NCBI RefSeq assembly: GCF_030013595.1
Contig: NZ_CP122768.1
DNA from: Escherichia coli
GTDB lineage: Bacteria > Pseudomonadota > Gammaproteobacteria > Enterobacterales > Enterobacteriaceae
Strand: one strand, 5' to 3'
Length of the DNA stretch: 64,000 nucleotides
Numbering within the stretch: position 1 is the first letter of the stretch; every line of letters starts with the position of its first letter. The translations under genes were made by a program, and so were the position numbers. Under the pieces are notes generated by a model. The model was not told the DNA's origin. It saw only the letters and a program-made list of their open reading frames with translations, and did not search any database. Below, in pieces: positions 22,249-29,757 of the stretch.

Positions 22249-22754
22249 AAAACTCCTGAATGGCGCAAGTTAATCACACGCGGCCAAAGTTCGAAATAAC
22301 GCTGCCCTGAAAGCCAGGCGTCAGGATAAAGCGCCATATAGTGTTTGATACGCATCAGCGGCGCAAGAAGTGGTTGCTCGCCACGGCGATAACTGTCGAT
22401 AAGCGCAGCCAGCTGCTGGCGTTCTGTGGAATCAATATGAGGGCGAAAATAACCCTGAACGTGCATCAAAACATTGGTGTGGTCACGTCGGTTGGCGGGG
22501 TGAGAAAGCAAAACAACTACGCGTTGGCGGTACTGGTTGTAATAGTCATCCAGATTTTGCCACTGGTGAATATCAGCCACGAACGGGCCAAGTTTGCGGT
22601 ATTCCGGCTGGGAATGAGCCAGAAAGACGAGTTTATAGCGGCTGTGATAATCGAGAAGCGCCCCGCGCGTTAAGCCATGTTCTTTCAGTCGATGTAACTC
22701 ATGAAGCGCGAAGATACGGATTAGAGTGCTGTCATCAAATCGTTGCTGATTCAT
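22245..22754 (-). CDS. ybgA: DUF1722-family protein, co-transcribed with phr
   Basis: ORF track 169 aa MNQQRFDDSTLIRIFALHEL...; stop overlaps phr start. Confidence 0.9.
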   Translation of the reverse strand: MNQQRFDDSTLIRIFALHELHRLKEHGLTRGALLDYHSRYKLVFLAHSQPEYRKLGPFVADIHQWQNLDDYYNQYRQRVVVLLSHPANRRDHTNVLMHVQGYFRPHIDSTERQQLAALIDSYRRGEQPLLAPLMRIKHYMALYPDAWLSGQRYFELWPRVINLRHSGVL

Positions 22755-22882
22755 TACTGCTCCTGAACGGTTTACAGGAGTAAGTGTAGACGTTGGTAAA
22801 TGATGTTTGTGAAGTTAATCCGCTAGCAGGGCAAGATTACGAAAGCGCGCTCCCCGCAAGCAACTCATCAAGGTAGTTAATC

Positions 22883-23176
22883 ATGGCTGAACACAATATT
22901 ACGCCAGAAGTCATCATTTCCAAAACACAGCGCCGCTGTACCGTGGGTTATCTGCCCAACCGCAGCGACACGCCGGTGATCAAAATCAGCGCCAAATGGC
23001 TGAGAGAAGCGGGATTTGAGATCGGCACTGGCGTTACCGTGAAGATCTCGGAAGGTTGCCTGATCCTGCTTGCGGATAACAACGAAGTACAGGAACTGCG
23101 CAGGGAACTGTATCAGGTTAAACAGGCTGTTAAGGGGATGCGTGACGGGATGTTTAGTGTGCTGAACGAGAGTTAA
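22883..23176 (+). CDS. SymE-like toxin-family protein (AbrB/SpoVT-like fold)
   Basis: 97-aa ORF; segment ISAKWLREAGFEIGTGVTVKISEGCLILLA resembles the SymE core ([28 protein letters not shown]) as I recall it; AAGGTAG upstream of ATG. Confidence 0.6.
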   Translation: MAEHNITPEVIISKTQRRCTVGYLPNRSDTPVIKISAKWLREAGFEIGTGVTVKISEGCLILLADNNEVQELRRELYQVKQAVKGMRDGMFSVLNES

Positions 23177-23243
23177 ATAATAAAAAAGCCGGGAGATTTA
23201 ATGTCTACCCGGCCCACACATTATAATGTGTAAAACATATATT

Positions 23244-23684
23244 CTATTTATTTAAGTATTTTTTAGAGATTCTTAACCACCATGCTTTACCAGAATTAAA
23301 ATTTGAAATTAATACTTTCCCTTTTTTCCTTTTTAAAACATCAAGAATTACAGCATCAGATTTTTTTAATATCCCATCTTCTTGAGGAACACCTAACTCT
23401 ATCAATATATTAATTGAGTCAAATAGATGACCTATCTTTTCATATTCTTCATACAATAAATTACTTTCATTATTCGATATCTGAATTAAGTAATTAAATG
23501 TAACCCCCAAAATATTAGGAAATTTAGAGCTATTGACACTCGATATAAACTCCTGAACAATAGCTCTGTTTTTTAATTTCCCGGCACATAATAAAGCATA
23601 AATATTTCCAGCCAAACGTTCGATATCATGCGGATATCTATATCCTTTAGCAATTATTGCCTTAATTTTCTGTTCAGGAGTCAT
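23244..23684 (-). CDS. candidate Rhs immunity protein (no recognisable family)
   Basis: 146-aa ORF starting 2 nt after the Rhs stop codon, with a GGGAGG Shine-Dalgarno embedded in the last Rhs codons; AT-rich like the Rhs toxin tip. Confidence 0.6.
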   Translation of the reverse strand: MTPEQKIKAIIAKGYRYPHDIERLAGNIYALLCAGKLKNRAIVQEFISSVNSSKFPNILGVTFNYLIQISNNESNLLYEEYEKIGHLFDSINILIELGVPQEDGILKKSDAVILDVLKRKKGKVLISNFNSGKAWWLRISKKYLNK

Positions 23685-23686
23685 TA

Positions 23687-26600
23687 TCAGTACCTCCCGT
23701 TAGGAACAGAAAATCCAGGCAAACGCCTTAGATTTTCCCACGATTCAGGGAAGTGAGTTAAGATCACTGGTGTTTTCCCTATCTGACTTGTTGCAGTAAA
23801 CAAACCTGTTTCAGGATCATAATAGCCTACTCTAGGTTTATTCGTATACCTATCTCTATAAGTAAATTTCCTGCCATTTTGTATCGTGGTTCTTGCACTA
23901 ATATCATATTCTTTTACTGAATTTGCACCGACTTGTGAGCCATGTTTTTCAAAGTGATCTCTTAGGCCCGGCCCATCAACATTTTGTCGTGCTTTATTCC
24001 ATTTTGCATTTTTAGCCGTACCACAAAATAACCCAAGCGGATCGATCCAGCTTAACGGATTTGGCACATAAGCATAGAGGTTCAGCCCACCGTTTAATCC
24101 TATCGGGTCCGTTACCATGAACCGCCCGACATCCGGATCATAGTACCTGTGCAGATTGTAATGCAGCCCCGTTTCCCTGTCGAGGTACTGTCCCTGGTAG
24201 CGCAGGTTCTGCTCCACCCCGCCGTGGTCCTTCTCCTGTATCGTGTTACCCCAGACCTGATACCCCGTCTCCCACACGATTTTCCCGTCGCTGTCCGTCA
24301 TCTCTTCCGGCGCGCCGTTCACATCCGTGTGAAAATACAGTATCCGGTTCGGGCCCTCTTTGCCCGCCTTATCCACCCGCGCCAGCGGTTCATAACTCCC
24401 CGGGTCCCTGTAGATGTACAGGCTGTCTGTTCCCTCCGGCCTGCTCTCCTGCGCCAGCCGCATTCCGTCCCATAAAAATTTTGTCCGGTTGTACGGTTTA
24501 CCGTCAGGACTGATGTGCTGTTTTTCCGTCCGCCTCCCCAGCGCATCGTACACATACCGGTACGTCCCCCGCGCTGTCGTCACTTCCACCATCCGGTGTT
24601 CCGCATCATAACGGTAACTCTGCGTGCCGCTCCGCCCCTCCTTTTCCACCGCACGGCCAAATTCGTCGTAACGGTAGTGCACACCACGGTAAGACATCAG
24701 CCGGTTGAACGGCACCACGCTGTTTTCTGCCGTGGCCCTTTCCCCCGCGCGCCGCGCCAGCAGGTTTCCCGCCGCGTCGTACTGCCAGCTCGCCAGATAC
24801 CCCTCATCCTCCGAGCGGCACGCCGTGATGCGCCCCGTGGGGTCGTAGAAGTAATCCGTTTCCCCCCGCCGGCTGTGCCGCGTCTTCAGCAGTTCATCCT
24901 CGCCACTGTAGCTGTACTGCCGGTCCGTGAACGTCTCCGGTACCCCCCCGCGCATCCCGCTGTATGTCTCCCTGCGCTTCAGCCGCCCGCCGGGGTCGTA
25001 AAGCTGCCGCGTGCTCAGTCGCCCCTGGCTTCTGAGCACTTCACGGTGCAGGGCGTCACGTGTGAACTCGCTGATGACCTCCCGGTCCAGATTTATCTGC
25101 TGGAGATGGCCGCTGCCGTAGTACAGATGACGCTGCGTTCTGCCGTCCGGAAAGGTGGTGGCTGTCCGGTTGCTGAGTTCATCGTACTGATGGGTCAGGA
25201 CGCCCTGCGCCGTCTCCTCAGTCAGCATCCGCCCCAGTCTGTCGTAACTGAAGCGGATAATCTCCGGTGCGTCTGTTTCCCCGGCATCCGACCGTCGGCG
25301 GCGGATTTCCAGTAGCTGGTCTGCCGCATCATGGACGTATTCCGTACGGCTATCGGCTGTCTCCTTTGCCGTAAGCCGGCCCGCCGCATCACGTGCCAGC
25401 CGATGGCGGATTTCACCGCCCCGGTCCCCGGTGAACACCACTTCCGTGACCGCGTTCAGCGCGTTGTAGCGGTACGTCTGGCGGCAGCCGTCCGGATTTA
25501 TCTGCTCCGCCAGACGGTCCAGCACATCATGGCGGAACCGGTAGCTTTCTCCGTTCTCGTTTGTCAGCGTGACCAGACGCCCGTAAGCATCGTACCCGAA
25601 TGCCGTCCTGCGCCCCGTCGCGTCCGTCCGGCTGCGCACCCGGCCCTGCCCGTCCCGCTGCCAGCGCGTTATCCTCCCCATCGGGCTGGTGTACTTCACC
25701 AGCCTGCCCGCCGCGTCCGACTGGTAATTCACCGTGCGGCCGTCCGCCAGTATCACCTCCGTCAGGTGGCCGCTGTCGTCATACCCGTAGCGCGTGCTGT
25801 GGCTCTGCGCGTCTGTCATCCGTATCAGCCGCGTGCGTTCGTCGTAGAACCAGGCCGTCTGCGAGCCGGAACAGTCCGTGTGCCGCATGAGCTGCCCGTC
25901 TTCGTTCCACTGAAGGTATTTATTCCCCCCGCGCGCATCGGTTATCTGCACCACCTGGCCGTGGCGGTCATACTGATACCGGGTGTTCTGCTGCAGCGGG
26001 TCGGTCACCGCAAGAAGATTGCCGCGTTCATCGTACTCACAGCACCAGCTGTTCCCCGCCGCGTCCACCTCCGTTTCCGGCTGGTGCCACACCGGGTGCC
26101 ACTGTGTCTGTGCCACCCGCCCCAGCGGGTCGTGCGTCTCCGTGATATGCCCCTGCCGGTCATACACATAGCGCCATTTGCCGCCCTGCGCATCGGTCAT
26201 TCCCAGTAACAGCCGTTCTTCGTCGCTCCAGCGGAACGTCGTCACCTGCCCGGCTTCGTCCTGGTACGCCGTCACCTGGTTCTGCGCGTCCCACTGATGA
26301 TAACGCGTGCGCCCCAGCCCGTCCGTCACGCACAGCCTGCGTGACGCCAGGCTCCACGCCAGCCGGTACTGTTCACCGCTGTCCGTGTGGTGCCCCGTCA
26401 CCCGCCACGCTGCGTCATCCGGGCCTTCATACCAGCCCCACTGGTAATAATACCCTTCGCCGCCCGGCTGGCGGTGCAGGGTCATGCAGTGGTTTTCGTC
26501 GTAAGCAAACTCGCGCAGCAGGTGTCCCGTGCTGTCGTACACGCCGTTCAGGTCGCCGGCCTCGTCATAGCGGTAACGACGCAGCAGTAAAGGAGCCGTC

Positions 26601-28339
26601 TCAGGGAAATGCTGATAAATCTGTGTCACCCGCCGGGGATGCGCCGCCAGTTCATAATGCAGACGGATGCACGGACGCTGCTGTTCACCGCTGATTTGCG
26701 TGATGCGCCCCAGCTCGTCGTAGTACAGATTCAGACAGTTGCTGTTGCGGTCGCCCAGCATTTTCAGCCGCTGGCGCTGCGGGTGATGCGGGTCGGCCTC
26801 AAACAGAAAAAACTGCCCGTCATCGCTGCTGATAAGCCAGTGCCCCTGCTCACCCCGCCTTACCGCCAGTCCTTCGCCGGGGCTGTAAAACCCGCTCCCC
26901 GGCAGCACGGCCTCCATATCCAGGCGTCGTCCCATGCCCGACACAAAGGTCATACAGTTTTCGTCAGCAGTACCCGGCGTGCGCTCGAGGCTGACTTCAT
27001 ACATCACGCTCCAGCCCTGCCCGAACATCCCTTCCGTGCGGTCGTCACGACTGCTGTACACGCGCTGCCAGTCCAGCGGAAAGTGGCCCGGCAGACTGAA
27101 ATCGAAGTCATCGTCATCCGCCAGATATTTGGCTCCGGTGGCGGCATTGACCGGATGCGGAAGGGCACTGATGGCCTTCTGCGTCATCACCCCCATCCCG
27201 ACACTGGCAGCAAAACAGGCGATTTTAGAAAGCATTTTGCCCGGGCGAAGAAACATCAGCGCCACAGTTGCCACCAGGGTTATCTGCGACCTGCCGCTTC
27301 TGATATCCCTGACCACCAGTAACGGACCGCCAATGCGGACATCCGGTGACACAAACGCCCCGTTCCCCGGCTCATTCACCACCCAGGCCTCGCAGGTGCA
27401 GCGTGCCCCGCTGCGTGCCGCCGGCTGGCTGTTGATACGCACATCCCGCGCGCCTTCCGCGATATATTCCGCTGCGGGCGGTTCATCATCGCCTTTGAAC
27501 AGATTACTGATGCTGCCAATAACCGCATTCACTCCCTGAAAGGCGGTTTCCAGCATACCGCCCGGACTCAGCAGGTTAAGGGCCGTTCCCAGAGGGTCAT
27601 CCAGAAAGGCGGCTTTTTTTTGTGCGAGAAACTGCGTCAGTGAGGAGGGATGTTTATGGCAGTCGATTTTATCGTCAGGGGTCGGGGTGGAGCCCGGGGC
27701 CGCACTGGCCACGGTGGGCTGCCATAGTTCCGACACAAAATGTGTCACGCCATCCACCATTTCAGAACGCCCTTCTTCCGTACTGAGCTGGTCATGCAGC
27801 GCCCGGGACATCAGCACAGGCCCTGTCACCGGGTTAACCGCCAGGGCTATGGCCCCCGCCATTTCCAGATATTCCCCGGCCACATCCCGGAACGTTCTGG
27901 CGTCCTCCTGACGCTGCGCTTCTTCCTGTTCCGCCTTCGCCTGTGCCTCCTGCGCCTCAATGTCCTGCCGCGATGCCGCAGTCGCCGCTGCCCGCGCGGC
28001 AGGTTTGCTGTTGATCCATGTGTCGCCAGAGCCGGTGAGGATGTAACCTTCAATCTGAGGCGGGAAAAGCCAGTTCGCCAGTTGCTCACTTTCCCTACTG
28101 ATTCGGTCATTCCAGCCCTGATACGACATAAATACCGCTGTTGCTATACCGATCGCTAAAATGGTTGAGCAGCCCAGCGTTGCCACTTCAACTCCGCCCA
28201 GCGCCGCCATGGTTCCGACAACCAGAACATCCACCAGGGCTGTGGCGGCAACCTCTACAACTGCCCCCAGCACATCTGCCATAAACGACGTATGCAGCAG
28301 GGCATCACCCTGCCTTGCCGCCCAGAATGCCTCTTCCAT
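23687..28339 (-). CDS. Rhs-family polymorphic toxin: prePAAR motif and hydrophobic segments, PAAR-like region, YD-repeat core, DPxGL motifs, variable C-terminal toxin domain
   Basis: ORF track 1550 aa; N-terminal AARQGDALLH (AARxxDxxxH) then hydrophobic stretches; many YD/RYxYD repeats; VTDPIGLNGG...PNPLSWIDPLGL followed by a ~113-aa basic tail; occupies the K-12 rhsC position but differs from K-12 RhsC at both termini. Confidence 0.92.
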   Translation of the reverse strand: MEEAFWAARQGDALLHTSFMADVLGAVVEVAATALVDVLVVGTMAALGGVEVATLGCSTILAIGIATAVFMSYQGWNDRISRESEQLANWLFPPQIEGYILTGSGDTWINSKPAARAAATAASRQDIEAQEAQAKAEQEEAQRQEDARTFRDVAGEYLEMAGAIALAVNPVTGPVLMSRALHDQLSTEEGRSEMVDGVTHFVSELWQPTVASAAPGSTPTPDDKIDCHKHPSSLTQFLAQKKAAFLDDPLGTALNLLSPGGMLETAFQGVNAVIGSISNLFKGDDEPPAAEYIAEGARDVRINSQPAARSGARCTCEAWVVNEPGNGAFVSPDVRIGGPLLVVRDIRSGRSQITLVATVALMFLRPGKMLSKIACFAASVGMGVMTQKAISALPHPVNAATGAKYLADDDDFDFSLPGHFPLDWQRVYSSRDDRTEGMFGQGWSVMYEVSLERTPGTADENCMTFVSGMGRRLDMEAVLPGSGFYSPGEGLAVRRGEQGHWLISSDDGQFFLFEADPHHPQRQRLKMLGDRNSNCLNLYYDELGRITQISGEQQRPCIRLHYELAAHPRRVTQIYQHFPETAPLLLRRYRYDEAGDLNGVYDSTGHLLREFAYDENHCMTLHRQPGGEGYYYQWGWYEGPDDAAWRVTGHHTDSGEQYRLAWSLASRRLCVTDGLGRTRYHQWDAQNQVTAYQDEAGQVTTFRWSDEERLLLGMTDAQGGKWRYVYDRQGHITETHDPLGRVAQTQWHPVWHQPETEVDAAGNSWCCEYDERGNLLAVTDPLQQNTRYQYDRHGQVVQITDARGGNKYLQWNEDGQLMRHTDCSGSQTAWFYDERTRLIRMTDAQSHSTRYGYDDSGHLTEVILADGRTVNYQSDAAGRLVKYTSPMGRITRWQRDGQGRVRSRTDATGRRTAFGYDAYGRLVTLTNENGESYRFRHDVLDRLAEQINPDGCRQTYRYNALNAVTEVVFTGDRGGEIRHRLARDAAGRLTAKETADSRTEYVHDAADQLLEIRRRRSDAGETDAPEIIRFSYDRLGRMLTEETAQGVLTHQYDELSNRTATTFPDGRTQRHLYYGSGHLQQINLDREVISEFTRDALHREVLRSQGRLSTRQLYDPGGRLKRRETYSGMRGGVPETFTDRQYSYSGEDELLKTRHSRRGETDYFYDPTGRITACRSEDEGYLASWQYDAAGNLLARRAGERATAENSVVPFNRLMSYRGVHYRYDEFGRAVEKEGRSGTQSYRYDAEHRMVEVTTARGTYRYVYDALGRRTEKQHISPDGKPYNRTKFLWDGMRLAQESRPEGTDSLYIYRDPGSYEPLARVDKAGKEGPNRILYFHTDVNGAPEEMTDSDGKIVWETGYQVWGNTIQEKDHGGVEQNLRYQGQYLDRETGLHYNLHRYYDPDVGRFMVTDPIGLNGGLNLYAYVPNPLSWIDPLGLFCGTAKNAKWNKARQNVDGPGLRDHFEKHGSQVGANSVKEYDISARTTIQNGRKFTYRDRYTNKPRVGYYDPETGLFTATSQIGKTPVILTHFPESWENLRRLPGFSVPNGRY

Positions 28340-28357
28340 GTCCCGTTCCCTGTGTGA

Positions 28358-28558
28358 TTAATTCGTCCCGGCTTCCTGCCGCATCCTGAAGCGCAGATTC
28401 TTTTTAATTTCAGCCCAGCGCGTCATATCTGCCGGGGTCAGCGGTGTGGTTCTGGCGTAGGTGAAGGCCATCATGACCCGTTCACCCGGCAATACAAATG
28501 CCACCTGACACTGGTACACCTGCTCGTTACCCCGGAGAAACTGGCTCTGTATTTGCAA
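28358..28558 (-). other. possible remnant of a gene upstream of rhs (truncated Eag/DUF1795-like chaperone?)
   Basis: 66-codon ORF initiating at TTG with an in-frame stop two codons upstream, ending 18 bp before the Rhs start; no ATG start or clear RBS; identity not verifiable by eye. Confidence 0.25.
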
Positions 28559-29294
28559 ACCGCCTCATAGAGATAATATTCCGTCATAATAGAAGTCGTC
28601 CTTTTTAATAAATGAATTATTTATTGACAGGTTCTGTTTTTTAATCATGAATGTAATGTCTATCACCGCTTTACAGCACTCTTTATCTTTCAAGCCGTAA
28701 TCACTAATAACATTAAGCAATTACCCATATTTACAATGACCGGAACTGATATGCCGTTATGTATTTAACAATCCCAACATATTCACCATACCAATAAAAT
28801 CACGAGTAACAAACACGCTACCGCCTCCATATAAAAAATGGACAGCTTATAAAATTGCATCTTGCATAGAAAGGGCTGAGATATCGAGTGTATTTTAATT
28901 ATCAACTATAAATGTTGAATATTTTCATTAACAGAAACACATCTTATCCCATTAGATATGTTAACAATCAATTACTCTTAACATATCACTAAAGTATATA
29001 TTACTCTCTTTACTATCTACTTTTATTGCGGTAGCGATACAAATAGCAAAATTCGGAATTTATTTAGATGCAGGAATTAGAAAAAGGGATGGCGGCTTTC
29101 TCACCTTACCCTGAAGTTTCAGGAAAGTGTGTAAGGAAGGATGCAACCTAACTGGAGATTTCTGAGGATCTAGTTGCTTAGAGCGACAATGAAGGTGAAC
29201 GCATCCAGAGTAGTCCTATGAAAGGATACTATTGAAAATTGATGCTAAAACAGTGATTAAATGAACAACACCATGGAACCCGTTGATTCAAAAC

Positions 29295-29326
29295 GCCTAA
29301 ACCAGCCCCCTGATACGAGGCTGGCT
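29295..29326 (-). terminator. hairpin downstream of ybfA
   Basis: CCAGCC ... GGCTGG inverted repeat followed by a T-run on the minus strand. Confidence 0.4.
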
Positions 29327-29341
29327 TAAACGCGCAGGCAA

Positions 29342-29548
29342 TCAGTAAAAATCACCAGTTGCCTTTTCGGCCTGATCCATCCACACCGGTTTCTCGCTGG
29401 TTTTCGACCAGACGCGGTGCAGGTAGCTGTAAAAGCGGGCGCGGTCTTTCCAGAAAAGCATGAAAGGCAGCGCCAGAACGCCCGCTGCAACCGCATAAGT
29501 ACGGCGTATAAAGATAAGCCATGCAGGATATTCTCTGTAGAGTTCCAT
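29342..29548 (-). CDS. ybfA: DUF2517-family small membrane protein
   Basis: ORF track 68 aa [33 protein letters not shown]... Confidence 0.85.
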
Positions 29549-29757
29549 ACTTTTCTCCCCCTTTTGTATCTATCCGGTGAATGGCACCGGAAAAATGAAT
29601 TTGTTTATCTGATGAAAATAGTACCGCCTTTTGTGTAATTTTACTACTCATCCGACCACTTATTTTTGCTTATTGATGGTTTATTTACATTCACACTGTA
29701 ATTAAGTTACACAAAAGTTAAATTAATACTAACCATCAGTTAAATCATGGCTTTTGC

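Follow-up and report, generated by a model that had tools for sequence, protein, structure and literature searches.

A stretch of 64,000 nucleotides (nt) from an Escherichia coli chromosome (contig NZ_CP122768.1), referred to below as the window, contains on its minus strand, at positions 23687 to 28339, an unbroken open reading frame (ORF) of 1550 amino acids (aa) plus a stop codon, with the N terminus MEEAFWAARQGDALLH. The probable product of this gene is a class I prePAAR Rhs effector that belongs to the VgrGO1/EagR-dependent family of E. coli, whose members are delivered by a type VI secretion system (T6SS). The gene would be a satellite copy, at ybfA-ybgA, of a vgrG-eag-rhs-immunity-symE island, and export of the protein, if there is any, would proceed via the VgrG and Eag proteins encoded at another locus, ansP. 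A preliminary description of this DNA had reported an ORF of the same position and length, without stating its strand, and had proposed that the product is an Rhs protein of the T6SS-effector type, with a prePAAR motif, a transmembrane (TM) domain, and a PAAR domain, rather than a canonical K-12 RhsC. The ORF list and translation confirmed the former point, and the sequence comparisons described here agree with the latter proposal in both its parts. The RefSeq annotation of a near-identical genome uses the same start codon.

Predicted N-terminal delivery module

Residues 7 to 16, AARQGDALLH, fit the prePAAR consensus AARxxDxxxH exactly, as had been claimed. For a protein of this composition, the chance expectation of such a match within the first 30 residues is about 3e-5. 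A full search with HMMER, in which residues 1 to 130 were compared with 1.84 billion cluster representatives, returned 81 relatives. The strict motif was found near the start of 65 of these representatives, and the other 16 were mostly N-terminally truncated or garbled fragments; lack of conservation among homologues, which would have counted against the proposal, was thus not observed. Nearly all of the 81 relatives also have a hydrophobic peak. In an alignment of 17 diverse N termini the prePAAR residues A7, A8, R9, D12, and H16 were invariant. The same was true of the PAAR columns A115, R116, A117, C227 (in a conserved CxKHP), P306, A307, R309, and C316, and of P396, G402, and K404 in the HPVxAATGAK motif that follows.

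The hydrophobic N-terminal region that the preliminary description had noted, and whose absence would have spoken against it, is present. Residues 17 to 73, approximately, gave Kyte-Doolittle peaks of 2.32 and 2.02 in a 19-residue frame, and AlphaFold2 placed helices at residues 19 to 47 and 57 to 74, within a longer stretch (residues 19 to 91) to which it assigned helices.

The PAAR domain had been described as a single segment that comes only about 290 residues into the protein. That segment exists (Pfam PAAR_motif, residues 291 to 321, E value of 1.3e-4), but it is not the first, because a PAAR motif, INSKPAARAA, already occurs at residue 113 (weak Pfam match at residues 97 to 118, E value of 1.7). 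The domain is split into beta-strand pieces at residues 94 to 120 (motif at 113), about 205 to 232 (WQPTVA...DKIDCHKHP), and 287 to 345 (motif at 306). The two motifs are separated by 193 residues, compared with 33 in the Rhs protein of the T6SS gene cluster at aspV, which is described below, and about 90 to 100 in most relatives. Apart from the E. coli subfamily, only one representative has the longer form, and the alignment contains two insertions that are specific to the subfamily. AlphaFold2 predicted strands in the prePAAR motif and at residues 95 to 120, 225 to 227, and 295 to 342, with helices in the insertions at residues 124 to 206 and 234 to 282.

Beyond the PAAR domain, hydropathy shoulders of 1.22 to 1.35 occur at residues 361 and 382, where AlphaFold2 predicted post-PAAR helices (residues 352 to 391) with a low predicted local distance difference test (pLDDT) score. 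Within the aligned block this segment, residues 346 to 392, matches in position the postPAAR helix of Photorhabdus laumondii Rhs1 and the seal/anchor-helix region of Pseudomonas protegens RhsA, the roles of which have been described (PMC8636562, PMC8765631).

Plug domain, YD shell, and autocleavage sites

The plug domain opens with HPVNAATGAK, in which A403 and K404 stand at positions +7 and +8 relative to His395|Pro396. The N-terminal autocleavage of P. protegens RhsA was mapped experimentally to H304|P305, with A312 and K313 at +7 and +8 (PMC8765631). By homology with RhsA, autocleavage between His395 and Pro396 is predicted for the window protein. The long YD-repeat core of the preliminary description was found, as 11 stretches matching the NCBIfam YD-repeat model TIGR01643 and an RHS_core match of 326 bits; the Pfam RHS domain was matched with an E value of 8.6e-15. 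Both DPxGL motifs that had been noted are present, DPIGL at residue 1411 and DPLGL at residue 1433, but the spacing between them is 17 residues and not the 18 that had been given.

Class assignment and comparison with known Rhs proteins

Class I prePAAR effectors are defined in PMC7773334, which also places Rhs effectors in this class. All of the features of the class that can be tested by sequence appear to be present in the window protein. The prePAAR motif lies within the first 15 to 20 residues or so, directly N terminal to the first TM region. A single N-terminal TM region is predicted between prePAAR and PAAR; the later helices at residues 346 to 392 reach a hydropathy of only 1.2 to 1.35. 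The PAAR domain follows the TM region, as judged by Pfam, RhsA homology, and the invariant residues, and then come the Rhs YD cage, the DPxGL pair, and a variable C-terminal domain of 113 aa. Eag proteins co-occur with effectors of this class. The eag gene adjacent to the window Rhs gene is a pseudogene, and the two closest genomes have two intact eag genes, one at ansP and one at aspV (the aspV Eag is WP_054496238.1).

Two structurally characterized effectors resemble the protein. A search of PDB sequences matched residues 77 to 418 with P. protegens RhsA (PDB 7q97; E value of 2e-35) and residues 7 to 120, from prePAAR through the first TM domain (TMD1), with P. laumondii Rhs1 (PDB 7pq5; E value of 8e-6). 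RhsA (PMC8765631, PMC7773334) has the same succession of prePAAR, TM domain, PAAR with an internal insertion, and seal/anchor helices, and then an HP autocleavage site, plug, YD cocoon, DPxGL autoprotease, and caged toxin. The window protein differs in having two longer helical insertions in the PAAR region, and the toxins differ as well. Whereas the RhsA gene adjoins its own EagR1 and VgrG1 genes, the window gene adjoins an eag pseudogene and a vgrG relic. Rhs1, or Tre23 (PMC8636562), likewise has prePAAR, TMD1, PAAR, postPAAR, shell, and toxin; in that protein EagR associates with TMD1 and with the postPAAR helix, and autocleavage occurs twice (PMC8636562). The N-terminal cleavage motif is DP-VYVASGE in Rhs1 and HP-VNAATGAK in the window protein, and the toxin of Rhs1 is an ADP-ribosyltransferase, in contrast to the ribonuclease (RNase) predicted here.

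The protein belongs to the same family as the Rhs proteins of the E. coli VgrGO1-EagR-PAAR-Rhs islands, which also have an immunity gene and a SymE-like gene at the island end. Unlike those islands, the window copy is located at ybfA-ybgA rather than ansP, has no vgrG, has a deleted eag, and carries a different and rare combination of C-terminal toxin domain and immunity gene. According to Ma et al. 2017, as cited in PMC6730261 and bioRxiv 10.1101/2024.03.05.583533, VgrGO1 and EagR are required for T6SS1-dependent delivery of the C-terminal toxins of E. coli Rhs proteins.

The window gene shares its chromosomal slot, ybfA-ybgA, with K-12 rhsC (b0700), and the two have in common a DPxGL pair, a core that is rich in GC, and a tip that is rich in AT; their YD cores are homologous. 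The shared site and the homologous YD core would be expected if the gene were a K-12-type rhsC with a mis-called start, in which case the prePAAR and TM region would not be in the protein. However, K-12 RhsC begins MSGKPAARQGD, is only 29% identical, and aligns from its residue 19 with residue 373 of the window protein. It is without the 370-residue N-terminal module and contains neither AARxxDxxxH nor a hydrophobic segment above 1.2 on the Kyte-Doolittle scale. The check for a mis-called start thus left the proposal standing. In addition, conservation of the first 420 residues extends to many full-length Rhs proteins and to the two characterized effectors matched in PDB, the RefSeq start is identical, and the N terminus is 100% identical to that of an Rhs protein linked to vgrG and eag in strain 104. 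The alignment that begins only at residue 373, the 7q97 and 7pq5 matches, and the conserved N terminus refute the mis-called start, to which we assign next to no probability.

By analogy with P. protegens RhsA and P. laumondii Rhs1, the protein would be expected to work as follows. In the producing cell an Eag dimer would shield the TM helices, while prePAAR and PAAR would jointly build the cone that caps the VgrG trimer. The T6SS would fire this complex into a neighboring cell, where the TM helices would insert in that target cell's inner membrane. Two autocleavages would then free the caged toxin, probably an RNase like those of colicin D and CdiA, into the cytoplasm, and sibling cells would be protected by the predicted 146-aa immunity protein encoded next to the Rhs gene.

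Remnants of eag and vgrG upstream of the Rhs gene

The preliminary description had stated that no vgrG, hcp, or T6SS structural gene occurs in the window. It was correct that there are no T6SS structural genes within the 64-kb window, but a 3'-end relic of vgrG and an eag pseudogene, together at positions 28358 to 28667, had been overlooked. The eag pseudogene lies 18 nt upstream of the Rhs gene and is annotated in RefSeq as a DcrB-related protein, "incomplete; missing N-terminus." Its remnant matches positions 77 to 126 of the 127 in the Pfam DcrB model (E value of 1.8e-5). The start codon (28587 to 28585) and codons 1 to 10 are retained; a net 223 nt, approximately codons 11 to 84, have then been lost, with a frameshift, so that translation from the ATG ends after 38 aa. 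The 3' part, positions 28358 to 28557, is 99% identical to intact eag. When the 68-aa eag remnant was compared with PDB sequences, the only matches were to complement-receptor/sushi proteins and were judged spurious; the Pfam DcrB match and the DNA alignment gave its identity.

Of vgrG, an 80-nt relic is left. The region comprising the vgrG end, the spacer, and the eag start is 75% identical over 107 nt to the island at ansP. Other strains keep an intact eag at the ybfA site: in D7 and G3X16-2 the same vgrG relic at ybfA is followed by an intact eag of 150 aa. It thus appears that vgrG was lost before the deletion in eag arose. At least 139 genomes (about 139 to 145 of 5426 complete genomes) have the eag-deleted arrangement. 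With the local eag and vgrG both dead, export of the window Rhs, if it occurs, must rely on VgrG and Eag from the ansP island.

Intact partners in the closest genomes

Partner loci were read in the two closest genomes (NZ_CM149870.1 and NZ_CM149862.1). At ansP both encode an intact VgrG and an intact Eag, and both have a T6SS cluster, which is located at aspV; the ansP island is about 0.9 Mb, and the aspV cluster about 0.6 Mb, from the Rhs gene. The earlier suggestion of an effector stranded from the machinery that would secrete it is therefore not supported beyond the window, and the appearance of stranding probably results from the 64-kb size of the window.

The ansP island of NZ_CM149870.1 encodes VgrG (664 aa) and Eag (150 aa), both intact, a 1548-aa Rhs, an immunity protein, and SymE. 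From the middle of eag to the DPLGL motif (window positions 28557 to 24033), the window is 97.3% identical to this island, and homology with the paralogue stops at position 24033, exactly at DPLGL. The two Rhs proteins share the prePAAR/PAAR region: they differ at 1 of the 330 residues from 91 to 420 and at none from 421 to 1000. Over codons 91 to 1000 there are only one synonymous and one nonsynonymous difference, and this near-identity points to recent gene conversion between the ybfA and ansP copies. In strain 104, too, ansP carries a vgrG-eag-rhs island, whose Rhs protein is 99% identical to the window Rhs over residues 1 to 1418. In that protein the 99% identity extends to DPIGL, after which the sequence continues as AGGNKPLPIRAESALLDRSAGTDCMF, without a second DPLGL, and ends at 1458 aa. 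The C terminus looks frameshifted or recombined, and decay thus seems to affect an otherwise complete island as well.

The aspV cluster comprises tssA, tssE, tssF, tssG, tagJ, tssH, tssB, tssC, Tae4/Tai4, tssJ, tssK, tssL, Tlde1, tssM, and TagF. In NZ_CM149870.1 it has its own vgrG-eag-rhs array, and the sister genome shares the cluster. The array contains a full-length Rhs gene with an ankyrin-repeat immunity gene, followed by three fragments of Rhs C termini with small ORFs, which is the usual form of an array of displaced orphan toxin/immunity cassettes.

A polymorphic TM cassette

The homogeneity of the ybfA and ansP copies is interrupted at Rhs codons 28 to 90, a variable TM cassette of which the window carries allele A. 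The two alleles share 50% nt identity, and the proteins are about 60% identical over residues 1 to 75, whereas the flanks are 95 to 100% identical. HCP5S3_I2, the strain of NZ_CM149870.1, has allele A at ybfA and allele B at ansP, and strain 104 has the reverse. The idea that each genome keeps one allele of each type was rejected, because 194 genomes (290 places) have allele B, compared with 81 genomes for allele A, and the B/B combination is common. One Eag protein, WP_000141612.1, adjoins either allele in different strains. It is conceivable that the two loci form a single effector system, in which the spike and chaperone of ansP serve both Rhs genes and gene conversion keeps these near-identical except for the toxin/immunity tip and the TM cassette of about 63 residues, but we consider this unlikely.

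Weighing the alternatives

A number of observations weigh against a functional effector that is exported with the ansP partners. The partner loci are known from the closest genomes, which over 20 kb differ from the window by 11 substitutions and a 3-nt indel. The part that Eag binds, the TM cassette, shares only about 60% identity with its counterpart in the ansP Rhs of the same genome. The hcp gene of the aspV cluster has, in both sister genomes, a stop at codon 36 (TAA/TAG type, WNIH*ESTMH), blastn found no second copy of this hcp type in either of them, and tagK is split by IS66 and IS3 elements, and an IS3 element abuts tssH. In this lineage, then, the T6SS may be inactive. The AlphaFold2 model of the N terminus has a low pLDDT of 63.5 and is confident only at residues 1 to 20, 90 to 130, and 290 to 350; the five best Foldseek matches to it were all PAAR proteins, at weak E values of 0.45 or weaker. 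A promoter and terminator scan of positions 22700 to 29700 gave no more sites than shuffled sequence, and no promoter was identified.

These observations bring forward the possibility that the gene is a decaying remnant whose product is no longer exported. It might then persist for immunity against neighbors with the same toxin, through gene conversion from ansP, or as a reservoir of toxin/immunity and TM cassettes. The hcp nonsense codon favors this explanation, as do the frameshifting deletion in eag, the reduction of vgrG to a relic, the IS-broken tagK, and the finding of a single hcp copy of its type in the sister genomes. The recent gene conversion over codons 91 to 1000 could also hold the ORF open without direct selection, and the scrambled C terminus of the strain 104 ansP Rhs would be a further instance of decay within the family. 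However, the 4.65-kb ORF is intact, and the ratio of nonsynonymous to synonymous substitution rates (dN/dS) is 0.07 to 0.17 against orthologues at the same locus. The eag deletion appears to be old, since it is shared by at least 139 genomes with upstream regions that are 1 to 2% apart, and the Rhs gene that follows the deleted eag is annotated as protein coding in every case among the matches listed. Intact Eag and VgrG are available in trans, and the hcp nonsense codon is known only from the two sister isolates; the hcp genes of four other relatives are 99.6% identical, hence not the same, and may be without the stop. A decaying remnant is the main alternative, although a less probable one.

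The absence of adjacent chaperone and spike genes, together with an hcp that may be inactive, could alternatively mean that the Rhs protein works without a T6SS, being released by lysis or exported in another way, with TM helices that serve self-insertion rather than Eag and VgrG loading. This seems very improbable. Every N-terminal element serves VgrG loading or Eag binding in the characterized homologues (PMC7773334, PMC8636562, PMC8765631), the invariant residues are those of the prePAAR/PAAR metal site and cone, and NCBIfam and Pfam scans of the Rhs protein found no signal peptide or other delivery domain. A class I prePAAR effector whose export, if any, depends on the ansP VgrG and Eag thus remains the probable explanation.

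Toxin, immunity, and SymE-like genes

The C-terminal domain is probably an RNase with a BECR fold like those of colicin D and CdiA C-terminal toxins, as judged by its predicted fold. The prediction has the BECR-type alpha/beta arrangement, in which an N-terminal helix packs against a sheet of four antiparallel strands. BECR-fold RNase toxins include colicin D, colicin E5, CdiA-CT, and BrnT, and of the known toxins those of colicin D and CdiA-CT (PDB 1tfk, 8ey4) are the closest. Residues 1438 to 1550 had no Pfam, NCBIfam, or PDB sequence match, and a word-indexed homologue search yielded only 10 relatives, none of them named. The homologues share the motifs RDHxxKHG, YDxSARxTIxxGR, RVGYYDxxTGLFTATSQ, and ILTHF. 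The conserved H, K, R, and T residues in RDHxxKHG, SARxT, and THF would be compatible with RNase activity.

The 146-aa ORF that begins 2 nt after the Rhs stop codon also had no Pfam, NCBIfam, or PDB sequence match. It is predicted to be the cognate immunity gene because its pairing with the toxin is conserved. In Pectobacterium the gene for a toxin homologue (83% identical) precedes one for a 144-aa protein, which has 42% identity to the product of the 146-aa ORF (E value of 5e-35), and the neighbor in the same position beside a distant metagenomic toxin homologue is weakly similar to it. Of the 5426 complete E. coli genomes, only 6 carry the toxin/immunity module.

A JGI metagenome contig, Ga0643530_0000090, encodes a toxin homologue of 118 aa (58% identical) that stands alone and is not fused to an Rhs protein. 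A putative immunity gene of 158 aa follows it, and a gene for a phage sheath domain is nearby. This stand-alone homologue indicates that the toxin module also travels outside Rhs proteins.

At the distal end of the island, a SymE-like gene is convergent with the Rhs/immunity pair. It matches NCBIfam SymE with an E value of 3.9e-12, which is below the curated cutoff, and RefSeq assigns it to the SymE family. It is 73% identical in nucleotides to the SymE gene of the ansP island, and a SymE gene ends the ansP and aspV Rhs arrays as well. Antisense to the SymE-like gene, at positions 22913 to 23221 on the minus strand, there are subthreshold Rfam matches to Ssr1 (271 bits; gathering threshold, 820) and isrA (31.8 bits; gathering threshold, 51), which may reflect a SymR-like antisense RNA.

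Chromosomal context

The window is E. coli chromosome. Over the 20.1 kb around the Rhs gene it is 99.93% identical to HCP5S3_I2 (NZ_CM149870.1), from pig feces, with 11 substitutions and one 3-nt indel, and the sister isolate LCP30S3_I5 is equally close or closer. The gene order is sucAB-sdh-gltA ... phrB-ybgA, the SymE-like gene, the 146-aa ORF, Rhs, the eag remnant, ybfA, and kdpFABCDE-speF .... In K-12 the interval between ybfA and ybgA holds rhsC-ybfB and what follows them, so that the earlier placement of the gene at the rhsC locus is sound. The GC content is 58 to 66% in the Rhs core, compared with 30 to 40% in the gene's final 340 nt, in the ORF that follows, and in the spacer upstream. 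The preliminary description had also remarked that the GC-rich core gives rise to spurious antisense ORFs; there are eight of these, of 96 to 292 aa, and RefSeq annotates none of them. The features of the locus are listed in Table 1.

Table 1. Positions in the window of the Rhs gene, its predicted domains, and the adjoining genes and relics
Feature	Position	Strand	Basis
Rhs gene, class I prePAAR Rhs effector (probable)	23687..28339	-	ORF, RefSeq start, NCBIfam RHS_core/YD/Rhs_assc_core
prePAAR motif AARQGDALLH, residues 7-16	28292..28321	-	Regex match, alignment, 7pq5 match
Predicted TM region, residues ~17-73, two predicted helices	28121..28291	-	Hydropathy, AlphaFold2
Variable TM cassette, codons 28-90, allele A	28070-28261	-	Comparison with ansP paralogue
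Split PAAR domain, residues ~94-345	27305..28060	-	Pfam, 7q97 match, invariant columns, AlphaFold2
Helical insertions in PAAR, residues 121-204 and 233-286	27482-27979	-	Alignment, AlphaFold2
Post-PAAR hydrophobic helices, residues 346-392	27164..27304	-	Hydropathy, AlphaFold2, 7q97 alignment
Plug domain DUF6531, residues 395-473	26921..27157	-	Pfam, E value of 5.9e-19
YD-repeat shell, residues ~474-1359	24263..26920	-	TIGR01643, RHS_core, composition
Rhs-associated core, residues 1360-1437, DPxGL aspartyl autoprotease that releases toxin	24029..24262	-	TIGR03696, E value of 1.7e-28
C-terminal toxin domain, residues 1438-1550, 113 aa, AT rich	23690..24028	-	Predicted BECR-fold RNase
146-aa ORF, predicted cognate immunity protein	23244..23684	-	Starts 2 nt after Rhs stop
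eag/EagR (DUF1795, DcrB-related) pseudogene	28358..28587	-	Pfam DcrB, RefSeq, DNA alignment
vgrG 3'-end relic and vgrG-eag spacer with ribosome-binding site	28588..28667	-	Alignment to ansP island
SymE-family toxin-like gene, convergent with Rhs/immunity pair, distal island end	22883..23176	+	NCBIfam, RefSeq

Implications

The architecture and the gene family are already described (PMC6730261, PMC7773334), and the RefSeq annotation of the gene is generic. What is new is modest, namely, an uncharacterized toxin/immunity pair, the eag deletion, and the TM-cassette polymorphism, and the current understanding of T6SS effectors is unchanged by them. The "rhsC" slot of E. coli does not always hold a K-12-type Rhs gene, and in about 4% of complete genomes a prePAAR T6SS effector is found there, as a copy derived from a vgrG-eag-rhs island. 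The locus also offers a natural test of Eag promiscuity, in that the chaperone gene beside the effector gene is defunct and a paralogue of it persists. It yields a rare toxin/immunity pair with a predicted colicin D-like RNase fold, and a divergent TM-helix cassette polymorphism within otherwise homogenized paralogues. If the two loci do form one effector system and the TM polymorphism is under selection, for example, for entry into different target membranes or escape from resistance, then it would represent a second, unrecognized axis of Rhs diversification.

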